Under the pieces are notes generated by a model. That model was not told the origin of the DNA and searched no databases. It saw only the letters and a program-made list of their open reading frames with translations. From the IMG/VR virus record IMGVR_UViG_2675903324_000004: 19,205 nucleotides of DNA; one strand, written 5' to 3'. Made by a program: the position numbers and the translations under genes. Source of the stretch: a virus (Duplodnaviria; Heunggongvirae; Uroviricota; Caudoviricetes). Below, one piece after another: positions 1 to 18,566 of this stretch; position 1 is the first letter of the stretch; each line of letters opens with the position of its first letter.

Positions 1-49
1 TTTCAAAATTAAAGAAGACCGGCGTAAGGCGGCGCGGGGAGAGTAGACG

Positions 50-841
50 ATGAATAAACAATACGAACTGGTTGTTAAAGGGATAAATATTTACCCGGAT
101 AAGATTACTGTTACTGTGGCGCTGGAAACTGGTGGGTATACGTCACTGTTGTTGCCAAATGTGGTGATTGATCTTGATCGTGTTGAAGGTGCCCCGCTGG
201 AGTTTTACGAAGCTGAGGCGAAAAAGAAGGCGAAGCAGTTTTTCATGGATATTGCTGCCGGGTTATGTGAAGGGAACGAACCGTTGCCGGAAAAGCGCCT
301 CTGTTCAGAAGAGCGGTATACCATACAAATTAACAATGCATATAACACGATACAGTCAGAAAAAGATGATATCGAATCACGCATTGAAAAACTGGAGAAC
401 AGCGTCGTTGAACTGAATAAAAAACTGTCGGTGCAGATCCCTTCCGAAGGTGAAAAAAAACGCCGTGATGAGCAGTTCGCGGCGTTTTACGATTATTGCC
501 GGAAAGTGATGAGCAGAAATCTCGCAGAGTGTTTCCGTATTCAAAAAAACAGAGAGCGCTCTGCAAATAGTGAGATTCTGGATAATTTTTTAAAGGGGAC
601 GCATCTCGCCAGTGATTGTTTCATTGCTCATTCTTTTGGTGGCTTTCATGAGGCCATCAAACATGATGTTGAGAGAAGTCCAGGTATCCTCTGTTCCATT
701 CCCGTAAGCATCGAAATAGACACAAATACGATAACCGGTGAACTCGTTACCGCCGGAGTCGGTATATTCCGTCATGAGGGGAACGATGCCAAAGGTTCCT
801 TTACAAAAATCGGGCCGTTCTTTCTGAAGGTAGAGCGATAG
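50..841 (+). CDS. hypothetical protein; accessory (moron-like) gene with a charged, Lys/Glu-rich N-terminal two-thirds
   Basis: 263-codon ORF with ATG at 50 preceded by a G-rich stretch (GGGGAGAG). The first ~180 residues look coding and no competing ORF covers 50-590. The region looks AT-richer than the structural genes (by eye, not computed). The 3' ~250 nt (590-841) overlap the convergent ORF 590-1222 in the codon-aligned antisense frame, so the true 3' extent is uncertain. No family recognised. Confidence 0.5.
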   Translation: MNKQYELVVKGINIYPDKITVTVALETGGYTSLLLPNVVIDLDRVEGAPLEFYEAEAKKKAKQFFMDIAAGLCEGNEPLPEKRLCSEERYTIQINNAYNTIQSEKDDIESRIEKLENSVVELNKKLSVQIPSEGEKKRRDEQFAAFYDYCRKVMSRNLAECFRIQKNRERSANSEILDNFLKGTHLASDCFIAHSFGGFHEAIKHDVERSPGILCSIPVSIEIDTNTITGELVTAGVGIFRHEGNDAKGSFTKIGPFFLKVER

Positions 842-1222
842 TTTGTTAAGTACCCATCCGACAGCTCGCTCATTTTGGTTTATTTTCGTATCGCGAAACA
901 AAAATTCGAAGCGGCCAGATGACGCATGGGTGCAACCAAATACCGGGGCGTATTCATCAACCTTTGGTGTTCCTGAAAACATGCAGTCCGTGCTCTCGAA
1001 TGCAGATGAATTGCTGTTGATCCACTTAACAAAAGAAAAAAAGGTCTGAATCGCTTGTCTGTCTGAATATTCAACAAAATCCTCAAGGTGTGTCTCGATC
1101 AGTTCCGGGTGTTTACGAAAGTCATAATATTGACCGGGACGATATTTATGAGTGGTTGTTTTATCCCATGGTTGTGCTCTGCGTCCCTGTAAACGGAGGT
1201 CTGCCGCTGGATAGATAAGCAT
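590..1222 (-). CDS. hypothetical protein; accessory (moron-like) gene on the opposite strand to the phage late genes
   Basis: The minus-strand ORF is open 1291->590. The internal ATG at 1222-1220 has a good SD (AGGAGA, 6-nt spacer), whereas the GTG at 1291 has none, so 1222 is the preferred start (210 aa). Composition is protein-like and uniform along its length, and codon choice in the overlap (ATC, ACC, GGC common) looks more typical than the opposing frame (ATA x3, AGA, CGA). No family recognised. Confidence 0.55.
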   Translation of the reverse strand: MLIYPAADLRLQGRRAQPWDKTTTHKYRPGQYYDFRKHPELIETHLEDFVEYSDRQAIQTFFSFVKWINSNSSAFESTDCMFSGTPKVDEYAPVFGCTHASSGRFEFLFRDTKINQNERAVGWVLNKLSLYLQKERPDFCKGTFGIVPLMTEYTDSGGNEFTGYRICVYFDAYGNGTEDTWTSLNIMFDGLMKATKRMSNETITGEMRPL

Positions 1223-1352
1223 AAGTAATCTCCTGGTGGAATGTAATCCACGATCATCCGGGGAAATTAAGAACCCGCCAGTGCCCACCACTGGTGGGGT
1301 GAAGGCTTAACATATCCAGGGATTCGGAACCGATAAATCCTGATAAATATCC

Positions 1353-1886
1353 ATGAACACCAAAATCAAATACGGCCTGTCGGCTGCCGTTCTGGCGCTG
1401 ATTGCCGCAGGGGCGCCTGCGCCTGATATTCTCGACCAGTTTCTGGATGAAAAAGAAGGTAACCACACCACGGCATACCGTGATGGTGCGGGGATCTGGA
1501 CCATTTGTCGTGGTGCCACCAGGGTGGATGGCAAACCTGTCGTCCCGGGCATGAAGTTGTCGAAGAAAAAATGCGACCAGGTTAACGCCATTGAGCGTGA
1601 TAAGGCGCTGGCATGGGTGGAGAAAAACATCCGGGTGCCACTGACTGAACCCCAGAAAGCGGGGATCGCGTCATTCTGCCCGTATAACATTGGCCCCGGT
1701 AAGTGTTTCCCGTCGACGTTTTATAAACGAATTAATGCAGGCGATCGCCGGGGTGCATGCGAGGCGATTCGCTGGTGGATTAAAGACGGTGGCAGAGACT
1801 GCCGTATCCGCTCAAATAACTGTTATGGTCAGGTATCCCGTCGTGACCAGGAGAGCGCGCTGGCGTGCTGGGGTATCGACAGATAA
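1353..1886 (+). CDS. R: SAR endolysin (T4-type lysozyme, glycoside hydrolase family 24)
   Basis: 177 aa. The N-terminus has a weakly hydrophobic Gly/Ala-rich signal-anchor-release segment (YGLSAAVLALIAAGAPAP), followed by the Glu-8aa-Asp-5aa-Thr catalytic spacing (EGNHTTAYRDGAGIWT) typical of T4-lysozyme-like enzymes. It resembles P21 R21 and Stx-phage R-type endolysins from memory. Confidence 0.9.
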   Translation: MNTKIKYGLSAAVLALIAAGAPAPDILDQFLDEKEGNHTTAYRDGAGIWTICRGATRVDGKPVVPGMKLSKKKCDQVNAIERDKALAWVEKNIRVPLTEPQKAGIASFCPYNIGPGKCFPSTFYKRINAGDRRGACEAIRWWIKDGGRDCRIRSNNCYGQVSRRDQESALACWGIDR

Positions 1887-1995
1887 GCCGAATATTTTGC
1901 TGAAAAATGACGTTGGCCAACGCGGACGGATAACACGAAATCCTGCGAACTGGCAAAATGTAAGTGAATAACGTCAGGAACATTATTTCACGCAG

Positions 1996-2025
1996 AGGCA
2001 CCGTAATGGTGCCTTTGTCATTTCT
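1996..2025 (+). terminator. candidate intrinsic terminator downstream of the endolysin gene
   Basis: Hairpin AGGCACC (1996-2002) / loop GTAAT / GGTGCCT (2008-2014), followed by a T-rich but interrupted tract (TTGTCATTTCT). Confidence 0.4.
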
Positions 2026-2160
2026 GCGCTTCGCACAAGCGTAAATAAACCAAAGAACCTTTCAGGATGAGCCCTGGTGGATAACCGGCAGTGGTCTGGT
2101 TAACCCTCTTTGGGCTGGTTATTCCTGTGCGCAGGGTTCATCACTAAAAGGAAATAACCG

Positions 2161-2733
2161 ATGAATATGATGACCGTGCCGTTTCACGGCGATTCTCTTT
2201 ATGTGGTTAACCATAACGGCGAACCATACGTTCCCATGAAACCTGTCGTTGAGGGAATGGGTATGACCTGGCAGTCTCAACACCGCAAATTGATGGAGAG
2301 ATTTAAGACCTGCATCATCGAAATGATGATTCAGCTCCCCGGTGATACTCAGCGTCGTCTGGTTATCTGTCTTGCTTTACGTAAACTTGCAGGTTGGCTG
2401 CAAACCATCAACCCAAATAAAGTTAAACCTGAAATCCGCGACAGAGTCATTCAGTATCAGGAAGAGTGCGACGATGTTCTCTATGAATACTGGACGAAGG
2501 GTTTTGTCGTTAATCCTCGTCAAATGAGCGTGATGGAAGAACTCAACCAGGCATGCGCTGACATGAAACGGGATAAAAACATTGCCAGTCTGTTTGGTAC
2601 AGGGTTAAACGAATGGAAATTGGTTAAAGCTGCGCATGTGTCAAAAATCCGCACATTGATAAACGAAGCGAATCTGCTGATTGATTTTGTCCTGGCTGAT
2701 ACAGGCAAAGGGAAAATAACAAAGGCGGATTGA
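2161..2733 (+). CDS. phage antirepressor-like protein (tentative; N-terminal region resembles P22-AR-N-type antirepressor domains)
   Basis: 190-aa ORF with SD AAGGA upstream of the ATG. The N-terminal motif TVPFHGDSLYVVNHNGEPYVPMKPVVEGMGMTWQSQ matches my memory of proteins annotated as phage antirepressors that sit between R and Rz in some E. coli lambdoid/Stx-type prophages. The family assignment is from memory only. Confidence 0.6.
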   Translation: MNMMTVPFHGDSLYVVNHNGEPYVPMKPVVEGMGMTWQSQHRKLMERFKTCIIEMMIQLPGDTQRRLVICLALRKLAGWLQTINPNKVKPEIRDRVIQYQEECDDVLYEYWTKGFVVNPRQMSVMEELNQACADMKRDKNIASLFGTGLNEWKLVKAAHVSKIRTLINEANLLIDFVLADTGKGKITKAD

Positions 2734-2882
2734 TGGAGTGGTGGCTAATGATATCGGATAAAATCATAACGCTGACAAAGACCATTTGTGTGATTGTCGG
2801 CGTTTCATTTTCGCTAATGATGGTTGCTCTTTTTCTTTCCATAGCCTGGATGGCGTTGAGTTCGGCAGGGCTGGTGGGGTGA
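2733..2882 (+). CDS. small hydrophobic membrane protein (49 aa); possible lysis-accessory protein
   Basis: Not in the ORF track (<60 aa). Its ATG at 2733 overlaps the upstream stop (TGATG) and its TGA at 2880-2882 overlaps the Rz GTG start (GTGA), so it is translationally coupled on both sides. It encodes MEWWLMISDKIITLTKTICVIVGVSFSLMMVALFLSIAWMALSSAGLVG, with one long or two short transmembrane segments. It lacks the charged C-terminal tail usual for holins. Confidence 0.4.
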   Translation: MEWWLMISDKIITLTKTICVIVGVSFSLMMVALFLSIAWMALSSAGLVG

Positions 2883-3322
2883 GCATAAACCGAATTCTTT
2901 CCGCGTTTACCGTTATTCTGCTGGTGGCCTGTGGTGCGCTTAGTTTGGGGCTGAATCATTACCGTGATAACGCCATCGCCTACAAAGAGCAGCGCGATAA
3001 AGCCACATCCATCATCGCTGATATGCAGAAGCGGCAACGTGATGTAGCAGAACTTGACGCCAGATACACAAAGGAGCTTGCTGATGCTAATGCGACTATC
3101 GAAAGTCTCCGTGCTGATGTTTCTGCTGGGCGTAAGCGCCTGCAAGTCGCCGCCACCTGTGCAAACTCAACGACCGGAGCCAGCAGCATGGGCGATGGAG
3201 AAAGCCCAGGACTTACAGCAGATGCTGAACTCAATTATTACCGTCTCCGAAGTGGAATCGACAGGATAACCGCGCAGGTTAACTACCTGCAGGAGTACAT
3301 CAGGACGCAATGCCTGAAATAA
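2879..3322 (+). CDS. Rz: i-spanin (inner-membrane spanin subunit) Rz
   Basis: From the GTG at 2879 the product begins MSINRILSAFTVILLVACGALSLGLNHYRDNAIAYKEQRDK..., i.e. an N-terminal TMD then a coiled-coil periplasmic domain, closely resembling lambda Rz (…AVNHYRDNAITYKAQRDK…). The upstream extension of the track ORF (TTG at 2786) is non-homologous, so the GTG start is preferred. Confidence 0.9.
   Translation: MSINRILSAFTVILLVACGALSLGLNHYRDNAIAYKEQRDKATSIIADMQKRQRDVAELDARYTKELADANATIESLRADVSAGRKRLQVAATCANSTTGASSMGDGESPGLTADAELNYYRLRSGIDRITAQVNYLQEYIRTQCLK
3084..3269 (+). CDS. Rz1: o-spanin (outer-membrane lipoprotein spanin subunit) Rz1, embedded in the +1 frame of Rz
   Basis: ATG at 3084 with a strong SD (AAGGAG at 3071-3076, 7-nt spacer). 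The signal peptide MLMRLSKVSVLMFLLGVSAC carries a lipobox (VSAC), followed by the Pro-rich mature region (KSPPPVQTQRPEPAAW) characteristic of Rz1. It is wholly embedded in Rz, as in lambda. Confidence 0.85.
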   Translation: MLMRLSKVSVLMFLLGVSACKSPPPVQTQRPEPAAWAMEKAQDLQQMLNSIITVSEVESTG

Positions 3323-3354
3323 TTTTTTTGCAAATCACAAAGTCAATTTAATGA

Positions 3355-3377
3355 GCCTCGCGATGCGGGGCTTTTTT
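3355..3377 (+). terminator. rho-independent terminator after Rz/Rz1
   Basis: 7-bp GC-rich stem GCCTCGC (3355-3361) / loop GAT / GCGGGGC (3365-3371), including one G-U pair, followed by TTTTTT (3372-3377). Confidence 0.7.
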
Positions 3378-3520
3378 ATGTCCGCAGTAAACGCGCATCT
3401 CACGCGCATATTAACGAGAGCCTTTCAGTAAGCGGGCCTGAGAATTGCCGTTATAGGTGGCGACCTCTCTCGGGCGGCTTTTCTGTGAGACAGGCTCACT
3501 TTCTAAAAGGTAAAGACGCC

Positions 3521-4018
3521 ATGAAAGCAATCACGCTTTTTAATACACCGATCCGTGTTGATGAATCAGGAATGATCTGCCTCACTGATATGTGGAAAGC
3601 CAGTGGTAAAAGTGAATCTGAATCTCCGTACCACTACCTGCGAAACAAGCAGACCAAAGAGTTCTTAGCCGAGCTGGAGAAAAACCACGAATCTGTGGTT
3701 TTTACTGAGCGCGGTGTACACGGTGGAACATATGGCGGGAAGTTTGTTGCTTATGATTATGCAGCATGGCTAACCCCCGGATTTAAATATGCAGCCTATA
3801 AAGTCCTGGATGACTACTTCACCGGAGAACTTCAGCATCGCAACAGCTTAAGTGCGCAGCTCAATATGAAGTGTCATGAGTTTGATCAGAAAAAAGATAT
3901 GGCGAGCTTCTGTGGGCAAGGTCTGGCGGCATGGCGCTATACGAAACCAGTGTTGGTCGCTGAGATTAACTCCCTGGCTAACCAGCTGCAGATAACGATC
4001 CCCGGGCTTCCGGGATGA
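3521..4018 (+). CDS. KilA-N domain-containing protein
   Basis: N-terminal region MKAITLFNTPIRVDESGMICLTDMWKASGK…GGKFVAYDYAAWLTPGFKYAAYKVLDDYF resembles KilA-N (APSES-like) DNA-binding domains common in prophage accessory regions. ATG 3521 is preferred over the GTG at 3485 by homology, but the start is uncertain. Confidence 0.7.
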   Translation: MKAITLFNTPIRVDESGMICLTDMWKASGKSESESPYHYLRNKQTKEFLAELEKNHESVVFTERGVHGGTYGGKFVAYDYAAWLTPGFKYAAYKVLDDYFTGELQHRNSLSAQLNMKCHEFDQKKDMASFCGQGLAAWRYTKPVLVAEINSLANQLQITIPGLPG

Positions 4019-4272
4019 GTGATCGTGTCATTGAATGCGCCTCCAGAGCGGGGCGCGACTTCTCAGAGTTCATGAAAGGCGAGAAGGGCATGATGGAAGC
4101 ATTGGCCTCGGTGGATGAGTTTGGCGAGCAGCTGCGCCTCAACGGCTGTGTCAATCATCACTTTGTTAGCTACATGATGCGGAACTCGATCATGCAGGCA
4201 TTCATGGACATGGCAAAAGCCGAGAGGAAAGAAGAGCGCCGGCGTAAGCGAGCGGAAGCAAAAGCGAAGTAG
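4015..4272 (+). CDS. small hypothetical protein (85 aa) with a basic, Arg/Lys-rich C-terminal tail
   Basis: The ATG at 4015 overlaps the stop of the KilA-N gene (ATGA), indicating translational coupling. The C-terminus is AKAERKEERRRKRAEAKAK. No family recognised. Confidence 0.5.
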   Translation: MSDRVIECASRAGRDFSEFMKGEKGMMEALASVDEFGEQLRLNGCVNHHFVSYMMRNSIMQAFMDMAKAERKEERRRKRAEAKAK

Positions 4273-4309
4273 CCATTACAAAGCCTACCTACGGGTGGGC
4301 TTGATAATG
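4273..4309. repeat. copy 1 of a repeated post-stop hairpin element (ATTACAAA - 5-bp stem AAGCC/GGCTT with 12-nt loop containing CCTAC - GATAATG)
   Basis: Lies immediately 3' of the TAG stop at 4270-4272 and resembles the element at 4873-4913 (roughly 75-80 percent identity by eye, same architecture). Confidence 0.6.
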
Positions 4310-4497
4310 AAACCGGAATTTATTCTGGGCAACCAGTTACGGCAGTACAGCGAAACAACCCAAGCCAGTAAGTGGGGAAATAACACTGGCAGCCACTGAA
4401 AGATGAACCTCCAGCCTTATGGCAAAAAAGATTCTTTGTGGTGGCAGACTGATGGAAAGACATCCTAATCAAGCAACCACTCCACAGGGTCATAATT

Positions 4498-15572: not shown

Positions 15573-16012
15573 ACTTTGCCCTCAGACTGGCGCGTGAGAT
15601 GGGGAGACCCGACTGGCGCGCCATGCTTGCCGGGATGACATCCACCGAATATGCCGACTGGCGACGTTTTTACCGCACGCATTATTTTCACGATACCCAG
15701 CTGGATATGCATTTTTCCGGGCTGACGTACGCCGTACTCAGCCTGTTTTTATACGATCCGGATATGCATCCCTCGGATTTCAGTCTGCTTGTCCCCCGGC
15801 GTGAGGAAGCGCAGACGGAGAGGCCGGATGAGGAAGACATGCTGATGCAGAAAGCGGCAGGACTTGCCGGAGGCGTCCGGTTCGGCGGGGAGGGCGGGGG
15901 CGATATTTCACCTTCTGCGGATGTGGTGGATGTCAGCGAGGATGATGTCGCATTAATGATGGCTTCTGCGGGGATTTCCGGAGGTGTGAGATATGTCCCA
16001 GCCGGTTGGTGA
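15141..16012 (+). CDS. G-T: tail assembly chaperone fusion protein G-T, produced by -1 frameshift at 15548-15554
   Basis: G frame to the slippery site, then the -1 frame (track ORF 15599-16012 plus its upstream open extension). The T-region sequence is similar to lambda gpT (GRPDWRAMLAGM.STEYADW.RFY.THYFHD…LDMHFSGLTY.VLSLF). Confidence 0.8.
15548..15554 (+). promoter_or_regulatory. programmed -1 ribosomal frameshift slippery heptamer G GGA AAG (G -> G-T fusion)
   Basis: The heptamer GGGAAAG sits in the correct phase of the G frame (GGA = codon 15549-15551). The -1 frame is open from here to 16012 and encodes …GKVFDGELNFALRLAREMGRPDW…, matching the lambda gpT region. Confidence 0.85.
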
Positions 16013-18566
16013 TCTTGTTATTGACCTGAGTCTGGATGCGGTCCGTTTCGATGAGCAGATGACCCGCGTAAGGCGTCATTTTTCAGGACTGGAGACTGAC
16101 GCCAGAAAAACCGCCAGTGCTGTTGAGCAGGGGCTGAGCCGTCAGGCGCTGGCTGCACAAAAAGCCGGGATGTCCGTCGGGCAGTATAAAGCGGCCATGC
16201 GAACCCTGCCTGCACAGTTTACGGATATCGCCACGCAGCTTGCCGGTGGTCAGAATCCCTGGCTGATCCTGCTGCAACAGGGCGGTCAGGTGAAGGACTC
16301 CTTCGGCGGGATGATCCCCATGTTCAGGGGGCTCGCCGGTGCGATCACCCTGCCGATGGTCGGGGTCACCTCGCTGGCGGTGGCGACAGGTGCGCTGGTG
16401 TACGCCTGGTACCAGGGAGATTCCACGCTTTCAGCGTTTAATAAAACCCTGGTTCTTTCCGGTAATCAGTCCGGACTGACTGCCGATCGTATGCTGACTC
16501 TCTCAAGAGCCGGGCAGGCAGCAGGGCTGACGTTTAACCAGGCGAGAGAGTCACTGGCAGCCCTGGTGAATGCCGGTGTGCGTGGTGGTGAACAGTTTGA
16601 TGCCATCAACCAGAGTGTCGCGCGTTTTGCGTCTGCATCCGGTGTGGAGGTGGATAAAGTCGCTGAAGCCTTCGGGAAGCTGACCACTGACCCGACGTCG
16701 GGACTGATGGCGATGGCGCGCCAGTTCCGTAACGTGACGGCAGAGCAGATTGCGTATGTTGCACAGCTGCAGCGTTCCGGAGACGAGGCCGGGGCATTGC
16801 AGGCGGCGAACGATATCGCCACGAAAGGCTTTGATGAGCAGACCCGTCGCCTGAAAGAAAACATGGGAACACTGGAGACCTGGGCGGATAAAACAGGGAA
16901 GGCATTCAAATCGATGTGGGATGCCATTCTGGATATCGGTCGTCCTGAATCCTCAGCGGATATGCTCGCCAGTGCGCAGAAGGCATTTGATGAGGCGGAT
17001 AAAAAATGGCAGTGGTACCAGAGCCGGAGCCAGCGCCGGGGAAAGACCTCCTCTTTTCGTGCGAACCTTCAGGGGGCATGGGATGACCGGGAAAATGCCC
17101 GTCTGGGTCTGGCAGCGGCCACGCTGCAGTCGGATATGGAAAAAGCCGGTGAACTGGCGGCAAGGGACCGGGCTGAGCGTTAGGCGTCACAGCTGAAGTA
17201 TACCGGAGAGGCGCAGAAGGCGTATGAGCGCCTGCAGACGCCGCTGGATAAATATACCGCCCGTCAGAAAGAGCTGAATAAGGCCCTGAAAGACGGAAAA
17301 ATCCTGCAGGCGGATTACAACACGCTGATGGCGTCGGCAAAAAAGGATTATGAATCGACGCTGAAAAAGCCGTCAGGTGTGAAGGTGTCTGCCGGTGAGC
17401 GCCAGGAAGACCGGGCGCATGCAGCCATGCTGGCGCTTGAAACCGAGCTCAGGACGCTGGAAAAACACAGCGGTGTGAATGAGAAAATCAGCCAGCAGCG
17501 CCGGGATTTATGGGAAGCGGAAAATCAGTATGTGGTCCTGAAAGAGGCCGCCACGAAACGGCAGTTATCTGAGCAGGAAAAATCCCTGCTGGCTCATGAG
17601 AAAGAAACGCTGGAGTACAAACGCCAGCTGGCTGAGCTGGGTGACAAGGTTGAATACCAGAAACGGCTGAATGAGCTGGCACAGCAGGCGGCACGGTTTG
17701 AAGAGCAGCAGAGCGCGAAGCAGGCCGCCATCAGCGCAAAAGCCCGTGGTCTCACTGACCGTCAGGCGCAGCGGGAGTCTGAAGAGCAGCGTCTTCGTGA
17801 CGTGTATGGCGATAATCCGCAGGCGCTGGCCCGGGTCACCGGGGCACTGAAACAGACATGGGCGGATGAAGACATGCTGCGCGGTGACTGGCTGGCCGGT
17901 CTGAAGTCCGGCTGGGGTGAGTGGACGGAAAGTGCGACGGACAGTTTTTCGCAGGTTAAAAGTGCTGCCACGCAGACCTTTGACGGTATTGCACAGAATA
18001 TGACGGCGATGCTGACCGGTGCAGAGGCAGACTGGCGGGGATTCACCCGTTCGGTGCTGTCCATGATGACAGAAATCCTGCTTAAACAGGCCATGGTGGG
18101 CATTGTCGGGCGTATCGGCAGCGCCATTGGTGGTGCTTTCGGTGGTGGGGCGTCTGCCTCCACGGGGACGGCCATTGAGGCTGCGGCGGCGAACTTTCAT
18201 TTTGCGACCGGCGGATTTACGGGCACGGGCGGCAAATATGAGCCTGCGGGGATAGTTCACCGCGGGGAGTTTGTCTTCACGAAGGAGGCAACCAGCCGGA
18301 TAGGCGTGGGGAATCTTTACCGTCTGATGCGCGGCTATGCGGAAGGGGGTTATGTGGGTGGTGCCGGAAGTCCGGCGCAGATGCGGCGGGCGGAAGGTAT
18401 TAATTTTAATCAGAACAATCACGTGGTGATTCAGAACGACGGTATCAACGGACAGGCGGGGCCGCAGCTGATGAAGGCGGTGTATGACATGGCCCGCAAG
18501 GGGGCGCAGGATGAACTCCGGCTGCAGTTGCGTGATGGCGGTATGTTATCAGGGAGCGGGCGATGA
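15993..18566 (+). pseudogene. H: tail tape measure protein (gpH homolog) interrupted by a single in-frame TAG at 17181-17183
   Basis: Track ORFs 15993-17183 and 17328-18566 are in the same frame (both coordinates ≡ 0 mod 3), and the 144 nt between them are open in that frame. The translation is collinear with lambda gpH across the junction (…LKYTGEAQKAYERLQTPLDKYTARQKELNKALKDGKILQADYNTLMASAKKDYESTLKK). The only interruption is the TAG at 17181-17183. ATG 15993 has SD GGAGG. Confidence 0.85.

Follow-up and report, generated by a model that had tools for sequence, protein, structure and literature searches.

Does the lysis cassette at the left end of IMG/VR virus record IMGVR_UViG_2675903324_000004 dispense with a holin, and what could be the role of the small hydrophobic open reading frame (ORF) lodged between its endolysin and spanin genes? 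A preliminary description of this 19,205-nt stretch of caudoviricete DNA, hereafter the window, presented the cassette as atypical, with an endolysin gene R of the signal-anchor-release (SAR) type and no holin in view, and with an antirepressor-like gene (ant) and a 49-aa membrane ORF embedded between R and the spanin gene Rz. Our analysis leads to a different picture. The cassette is almost certainly the usual lysis module that Shiga toxin (Stx)-type lambdoid Escherichia coli prophages carry in their late operon, and the small ORF is likely to be a real accessory membrane gene. Taken as a whole, the statement that we favor, and consider moderately probable, is that of an ordinary Stx-phage lysis module in which the small ORF codes for a non-essential inner-membrane accessory protein produced late.

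The missing holin is an artefact of the left edge, as the window starts inside a predicted holin gene S of the P21-type class II (pinholin) family, of which only the 3' end, 14 codons and a stop, remains at positions 2-46 on the plus strand. These bases translate to FKIKEDRRKAARGE followed by the stop, i.e., to the charged C-terminal tail that is typical of holins, and this tail is close to that of the phage 21 holin S21, which we take to end in ...EDRRKAARGE. The 99%-identical chromosome NZ_CP027449 codes for a "class II holin family protein" of 71 aa that terminates precisely at the equivalent of window base 46, and the holin genes of Stx1_14040 (68 aa) and Stx2-86 (71 aa) stop at the same point. 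The holin of NZ_CP027449 (locus L003, 5831-6046), tested in place of the window remnant, matches PF04971 "Bacteriophage P21 holin S" with E = 2.9e-33. Since the window retains a holin tail and its relatives carry a complete PF04971 holin, the cassette is typical, and the earlier claim that it is not must be abandoned. Given its family membership and the published work on such genes (PMC10462455), the S product would be a pinholin, which forms small holes and depolarizes the membrane.

Positions 1-3400 of the window match 553 phage records, mostly of Stx1- or Stx2-converting phages, as well as 4,981 of 5,426 complete E. coli genomes, and 13 chromosomes carry full-length matches at 98-99% identity. 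In the closest annotated relatives, stx and a SASA/NanS-p esterase gene lie directly upstream of the region and the terminase genes downstream, and the remainder of the window bears genes of the lambda type (Nu1, A, portal, protease, capsid, tail tube and tape measure). The matches to Stx phages, the position between stx and terminase genes and the lambda-type gene content together identify the window as the late region of an Stx-type lambdoid E. coli prophage. The typical order in such phages is S, a DUF1327 gene, R (which codes for a SAR lysozyme), ant, the small ORF and Rz-Rz1, an arrangement that is published and widespread. In nearly all Stx phages (~99%) a pinholin accompanies a predicted SAR endolysin, Ant is found in 126 of 279 of them, and the S proteins of Stx2a phages belong to the P21 holin family; the combination of P21-type pinholin and SAR endolysin is the norm, as is the R-ant-Rz order (PMC8136144, PMC10462455). 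The preliminary description was thus correct on the R-ant-Rz order, which the relatives of the window also display. The order S-(ydfR)-R-ant-small ORF-Rz/Rz1 is shared with the modules of the EDL933 Stx prophage/933W, Stx2-86, P13374, Stx1_14040 and BP-4795, which likewise lie downstream of stx and nanS-p, and with which the window shares 87-99% identity wherever the two match. The differences are only allelic or mosaic, and include a 210-aa reverse-oriented orphan gene and a window-specific allele of the small ORF. This architecture and the small ORF were already on record in databases and the literature.

The core genes of the cassette conform to this assignment. R (1353-1886, plus strand) codes for a lysozyme of the R21/933W type (PF00959 at 7.3e-25), whose N-terminus, MNTKIKYGLSAAVLALIAAGAPAP, bears the basic residues K4 and K6 ahead of a Gly/Ala-rich stretch, YGLSAAVLALIAAGAPAP. 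This stretch is weakly hydrophobic, with a best 19-residue Kyte-Doolittle mean of 1.74 versus 2.3-2.5 for the transmembrane domains (TMDs) of Rz and of the small ORF. The catalytic triad E35/D44/T50 (Glu-8 aa-Asp-5 aa-Thr) aligns with the same-numbered residues of the solved phage 21 lysozyme 3HDE, which is found together with 3HDF and 4ZPU among the structure matches of R. R of the EDL933 Stx prophage (locus L007) is 93% identical to that of the window, and R of phage 933W serves experimentally as a SAR endolysin (PMC9239132). By family and sequence features, R is thus predicted to be a SAR endolysin, as proposed initially, and would be exported in a Sec-dependent manner. The terminator-like hairpin that had been noticed after R is also present (1992-2018, plus strand), with a predicted 11-bp stem, a GUAAU loop and an interrupted U tract; a simple terminator scan did not list it.

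Downstream of the hairpin, the antirepressor-like gene (2161-2733, plus strand) combines P22_AR_N and ORF11CD3 domains (PF10547 at 8.1e-46; ORF11CD3 at 5.8e-07) and matches phrog_524 at 1.9e-105, so that both Pfam and PHROG bear out its initial identification. Its 190-aa product covers only positions 7-210 of the 317-position phrog_524 (anti-repressor Ant) profile. Beyond the small ORF lies the i-spanin gene Rz (2879-3322, plus strand; PF03245 at 7.5e-35), which PGAP also annotates in the 99%-identical relative. Rz starts at a GTG that overlaps the stop of the small ORF and is preceded by Shine-Dalgarno-like bases too near for normal spacing, and its N-terminal TMD reaches a best 19-residue Kyte-Doolittle mean of 2.32. 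The o-spanin gene Rz1 (3084-3269, plus strand; PF06085 at 3e-20) is embedded in the +1 frame of Rz, and its product displays the lipobox LLGVSAC (VSAC) and a proline-rich mature part. Rz and Rz1 are accordingly predicted to form an embedded two-component spanin. The block made of ant, the small ORF and Rz/Rz1 ends at a strong intrinsic-terminator-like site (3353-3383, plus strand), with a 9-bp stem that includes six GC pairs, followed by TTTTTAT.

The small single-TMD ORF itself occupies positions 2733-2882 on the plus strand and codes for 49 aa if read from the ATG at 2733, and for a 44-aa conserved core if read from the one at 2748. As the preliminary description had read in the sequence, its ATG and the stop of ant have one base (A) in common (TGATG), and at its other end the TGA runs into the GTG start of Rz at 2879 (GTGA). 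At loci that lack ant, the ORF begins at the Met equivalent to window position 2748, which a strong Shine-Dalgarno sequence (AAGGGAGGA or AAGGGG) precedes. What is conserved would therefore be the 43-44-aa core from 2748, with the MEWWL extension from 2733 as a variable add-on; this extension is found only in ant-linked alleles and is the most variable part of the ORF. The phrog_4906 profile is matched by the window ORF over its full 49 positions (E = 1.2e-27), and the 43-aa ant-less form corresponds to positions 7-49. The TMD covers approximately residues 17-38, with a best 19-residue Kyte-Doolittle mean of 2.54. In the predicted topology, the lysine-bearing N-terminus is cytoplasmic and a single TMD leads to an uncharged periplasmic tail of ~11 residues. 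The charged C-terminal domain characteristic of holins is absent from the small ORF, whose last residues, WMALSSAGLVG, are uncharged and end 11 residues past the TMD. A holin was therefore rejected as the identity of this ORF, given its single TMD and its C-terminus devoid of charge. A Mu-type releasin was likewise rejected, given the lack of a DUF2730 match and of a cytoplasmic domain, and a topology opposite to that expected, with the lysines N-terminal to the TMD.

The small ORF has a narrow host range (E. coli and Shigella) in which it is highly abundant. It was found by tblastn in 276 phage records, always full-length and at 63-82% protein identity, which makes the window allele specific to the window. 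IMG/VR holds 377 copies, and among 5,426 complete E. coli genomes 1,696 contain its DNA, a single genome having as many as 11 copies. It hardly occurs beyond E. coli and Shigella, with one contaminant-like contig among 185,579 GTDB species representatives. This 328-bp contig (locus L009; NZ_JPLE01000251.1), labelled Xanthomonas pisi, carries the junction between the 3' end of ant and the small ORF of an E. coli phage and is most likely a contamination of that assembly. When 1.84 billion representative proteins were searched with a profile, 26 matches emerged, all of them to the same narrow family or to frame-shifted fusions, and no link to any characterized family; Pfam, NCBIfam and PADLOC contain no match to the small ORF either. 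Contrary to the initial proposal, the ORF is nevertheless annotated: it is WP_000443009.1 in PGAP (in a 99%-identical relative), a "hypothetical protein" in GenBank phage entries and phrog_4906 in PHROG. It is also the homolog of XECs191, a ribosome-footprinted intergenic ORF of Hucker et al. (2017), which is the allele of the O157:H7 strain Sakai (PMC5597208). None of the sources of phrog_4906, WP_000443009.1 and XECs191, which all represent the same small-protein family, assigns it a function or ties it to the lysis cassette. A literature search with peptide strings found no match in main texts, and its sole match was in the supplement of PMC5597208.

Conservation of the ORF in related prophages was confirmed, with intact copies in 90 of 90 loci. 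These represent 28 distinct alleles devoid of insertions or deletions, in all of which the length from Ser8 to the stop is exactly 42 codons. Pairwise Nei-Gojobori estimates on the 28 alleles give a pooled dN/dS of 0.44 in frame, versus 0.82 and 1.10 in the two other sense frames. Divergent pairs range from 0.25 to 0.5, and Fisher tests on two pairs yielded p = 0.002 and p = 0.006. K10, the Ser25-Phe26 pair, W39, L42 and G46 are retained in relatives down to ~55% identity, and a second lysine, at position 16 or 13, is retained N-terminal of the TMD. The preliminary description had named two findings that together would speak against its reading: a holin immediately upstream of the window, which does exist, and a small ORF that is absent from related prophages or evolves free of selection, which is not what we observed, as the ORF is present and under modest purifying selection. 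An antisense ORF of 40 aa (2764-2886, minus strand) is open in 28 of 28 alleles, with a dN/dS of 0.50. We regard it as a by-product rather than as a gene, because the two strands share their wobble positions and the hydrophobic sense peptide is devoid of the Tyr, His and Gln codons that antisense stops would require.

Evidence of translation is weak and comes from XECs191, for which the RNA and footprint RPKM (reads per kilobase per million mapped reads) in LB are 30.0 and 12.6, respectively, with a ribosome-coverage value of 0.43 and a coverage of 0.55; the prediction made for XECs191 was that of an inner-membrane location and one transmembrane helix (PMC5597208). No sigma-70-like promoter was found on the plus strand; therefore, late expression is most likely for ant, the small ORF and Rz/Rz1.

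The neighbors of the small ORF were surveyed at 95 loci. In all of them the ORF lies 3' of an endolysin gene, on the late strand and within the lysis cluster. The endolysin is mostly a SAR lysozyme, but a cytoplasmic M15 peptidase replaces it at two loci and a GH108 enzyme at two phiP27-like loci; the holins Phage_holin_8 and Phage_holin_3_7 occur in the one M15 locus examined and in the phiP27-like GH108 loci. The association with M15 and GH108 endolysins and with other holins implies that the ORF is specific neither to SAR endolysins nor to pinholins. Its upstream neighbor is a P22_AR_N ant at 54 loci, an unrelated KilAC ANT at 13 and a phrog_1115-like small TMD ORF at 23. Downstream, Rz follows at most loci, a D12 methylase stands between the ORF and Rz at six of the 95, with a phrog_1115-like ORF before the methylase where this was read, and in one allele another methyltransferase lies directly 3' of the ORF. 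In every arrangement, the stop of the small ORF overlaps the start of the next gene or sits at most ~10 nt from it. The preliminary description had inferred a translationally coupled unit made of ant, the small ORF, Rz and Rz1; the overlaps are real in the window, but, as the neighbors change, coupling to ant and Rz is dispensable across loci and is a feature of the window allele rather than of the family. We also looked for co-variation between small-ORF alleles and the N-terminal TMD of Rz, and no signal was readable since this TMD is nearly invariant.

Two observations complete this survey. The phrog_1115-like proteins, which have a C-terminal TMD and end in ...LAKLVIALKS or ...ARLITAIKG, lie directly in front of or directly behind the small ORF at loci that lack a P22-type ant (L071, 2277-2492; L005, 3310-3492; L017, ~2647-2769; L061, 2361-2498; L090, 3861-3998), and occur as well at loci where a methylase separates the small ORF from Rz; the two small ORFs may form a pair. 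At the phiP27-like locus L090, no Rz-like spanin gene was called from the endolysin gene to the terminase genes, and the homolog of the small ORF is directly followed by a gene (4141-4322) for a 60-aa predicted lipoprotein, the signal peptide of which ends in LLVGC, leaving a mature part of ~30 aa. A mini-spanin composed of these two products was considered and rejected, as a periplasmic tail of 11 residues is too short to span the periplasm.

Several results weigh against the reading of the small ORF as an accessory lysis-cassette protein. Approximately half of the phage records that match the lysis region are devoid of it (553 versus 276), which implies that lysis does not need it, and the phiP27-like loci carry it in the absence of an adjacent Rz-like gene, which weakens a spanin-specific role. 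Its constraint is far weaker than that of R (0.095) or ant (0.118), dN/dS exceeds 1 in one lineage, and when tested, the conservation of hydrophobicity fell short of significance (p = 0.067). The footprint signal of XECs191 is low, with only 55% coverage, and stems from uninduced cultures (PMC5597208), while the lack of a plus-strand sigma-70-like promoter leaves expression in lysogens unsupported. Finally, our literature search found no functional study of the ORF.

How do the alternatives fare against these data? The preliminary description suggested an atypical, holin-less SAR cassette in which the small membrane protein would time the action of the SAR endolysin or of the pinholin, or be a factor devoted to the spanin. 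The location of the ORF within the lysis cassette, its overlap with the Rz start and the two in-frame starts of ant-linked alleles (2733 and 2748), which loosely resemble holin dual-start motifs, are compatible with such a role, and non-holin membrane proteins that govern the release of SAR endolysins do exist, as exemplified by the Mu releasin gp25 (PMC9239132). Like the window ORF, gp25 is a small non-holin membrane-anchored protein encoded near a SAR endolysin; however, gp25 is a 99-aa DUF2730 protein oriented N-out/C-in, of which 73 aa form a cytoplasmic domain (PMC9239132), whereas the window ORF codes for 44-49 aa, is predicted to be N-in, has no soluble domain and no DUF2730 match, and belongs to a family that also occurs beside non-SAR endolysins. 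With a P21-type holin directly upstream, cytoplasmic M15 and GH108 endolysins and Phage_holin_8/3_7 holins beside the same ORF, methylase genes that separate it from Rz, phiP27-like loci that lack an adjacent Rz-like gene, no charged C-terminal tail, cytoplasmic domain or Pfam match, and an N-terminal extension that varies more than any other part and does not occur at ant-less loci, this explanation appears highly improbable. Another possibility is that the product has no function of its own, the ORF being either a leader whose translation is linked to that of the following gene, with its weak start (the Rz GTG), or a fortuitous hydrophobic frame. The stop of the ORF overlaps or abuts the next start in all arrangements, Rz does rely on a GTG with badly spaced Shine-Dalgarno-like bases, dN/dS is only 0.44, the variable sites by codon position (22/17/22) show no third-position excess, and the antisense frame is open as well. 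Yet, the 42 codons from Ser8 to the stop are fixed despite ~35% nucleotide divergence, specific residues and the lysines of the cytoplasmic side are conserved, the second codon position is the least variable while the other sense frames have a dN/dS of ~1, the ORF is retained where the next gene has its own ATG, and the openness of the antisense frame is automatic for a sequence lacking Tyr, His and Gln codons. We thus hold a functionless product to be improbable, if slightly less so than a timer.

A better contender, although still unlikely in our view, is a moron unrelated to lysis, i.e., an inner-membrane effector directed at the host or at rival phages, for instance through superinfection exclusion or the modulation of a host membrane protein, that merely rides in the insertion-tolerant slot between R and Rz. 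This slot does accommodate interchangeable genes (two types of antirepressor, D12 and N6/N4 methylases, a second small TMD ORF), the small ORF moves as a mosaic module among differing lysis systems, its relaxed and lineage-variable constraint is typical of accessory genes, and both RNA and footprints were detected in uninduced Sakai cultures. This signal is, however, low enough for spontaneous induction to be its source, PADLOC returned no match, and expression from a repressed prophage is doubtful given the lack of a promoter-like site upstream on the plus strand and the terminator-like hairpin that precedes the block.

The reading that we prefer, a non-essential late accessory protein in an ordinary Stx-phage module, can be translated into a scheme in which the core genes are those of the P21-type pinholin S, the SAR endolysin R and the embedded spanin Rz/Rz1, and in which two accessory slots would hold a DUF1327/ydfR remnant with a reverse-oriented orphan gene (S-R) and the ant-like gene with the small membrane ORF (R-Rz). 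As suggested by the families to which these proteins belong, the pinholin would trigger and depolarize the inner membrane as in phage 21, membrane-tethered R would then be released, refold and degrade the peptidoglycan, and Rz-Rz1 would finally disrupt the outer membrane. Q-modified RNA polymerase would read past the hairpin that follows R into ant, the small ORF and Rz/Rz1, and the small-ORF product would be made late as a non-essential accessory peptide of the inner membrane. In the arrangement of the window, its translation probably also hands ribosomes on to Rz, the GTG start of which is weak. The ORF would encode neither a holin nor a SAR- or pinholin-specific timer. More tentatively, and with odds that we place somewhat below even yet above those of each alternative, it may fine-tune a step of lysis at the inner membrane that different types of holins and endolysins share; the i-spanin Rz is the first candidate partner because it is the most frequent neighbor of the ORF.

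The slot between S and R deserves a closer look. The ORF at 50-841 (plus strand), of 263 aa, belongs to the DUF1327/YdfR family (PF07041 at 7.5e-34) and is chimeric or a pseudogene. Its family homology is limited to residues 1-168 (nt 50 to ~553), where PHROG matches also end, and its last 95 codons are antisense to a minus-strand orphan gene. PGAP marks it as incomplete or as a pseudogene in the 99%-identical relative, GenBank phage records annotate it whole, and its phage 86 homolog bears the RefSeq label "YdfR family protein". The reverse-oriented orphan gene (590-1222, minus strand; 210 aa), inserted between S/ydfR and R, has conserved homologs of 209-220 aa in Salmonella and Yersinia, 52-65% identical and with many invariant residues. 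It possesses its own terminator-like hairpin (564-549, minus strand), the position of which coincides with the end of the DUF1327 homology. Our searches assigned it to no family, and its predicted fold gave no convincing match. Other reverse-oriented genes occupy the same site in related phages, which makes the S-R interval a slot for accessory genes.

Both slots distinguish the window from its closest paradigm. The phage 21 lysis cassette, which is contiguous, resembles that of the window in its PF04971 holin family, in a lysozyme with a SAR-like N-terminus and E35/D44/T50, and in its embedded Rz/Rz1, but the window has accessory genes between S and R and between R and Rz. In the Qin prophage of E. 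coli K-12, a DUF1327/YdfR gene presumably lies between the holin and lysozyme genes (essQ-ydfR-rrrQ) as it does in the window, where the 3' end of ydfR has been replaced by the reverse-oriented gene.

Other features of the window lie outside this question. The spanin genes are flanked by two regulator-like genes, at 2161-2733 and 3485-4018, which have the ORF11CD3 C-terminal domain in common and differ in their N-terminal domains (P22_AR_N and KilA-N, respectively); the latter gene also gives a weak PADLOC match to PDC-S22 (8.6e-09). An Rfam scan of the whole window returned no match. Further downstream, an in-frame TAG at 17181-17183 splits a lambda H-type tape-measure gene (within 15993-18566) into two halves of the same frame, with TMP_2 in 15993-17183 and Tape_meas_lam_C in 17328-18566. 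The corresponding codon is GAG in the plaque-forming relative PhiR12_1. The prophage may thus be tail-defective, or the TAG may be a sequencing error.

With the apparent holin anomaly corrected, what remains of interest is an abundant and conserved single-TMD gene inside the lysis cassette of Stx phages. It is conceivable, though doubtful at this stage, that phrog_4906 is the founding member of an unrecognized class of lysis-cassette accessories, namely a 44-aa late inner-membrane peptide that modulates a membrane step which pinholin/SAR and canonical holin/endolysin systems have in common; examples would be the assembly or restraint of the i-spanin, or the integrity of the membrane before triggering. 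Stx exits the cell largely via phage-mediated lysis, and for this reason any effect of the small ORF on the timing or efficiency of lysis would bear on toxin output. If phrog_4906 does represent such a class, the timing of lysis, and hence the release of Shiga toxin, would be tuned by this peptide in about one-third of E. coli genomes.

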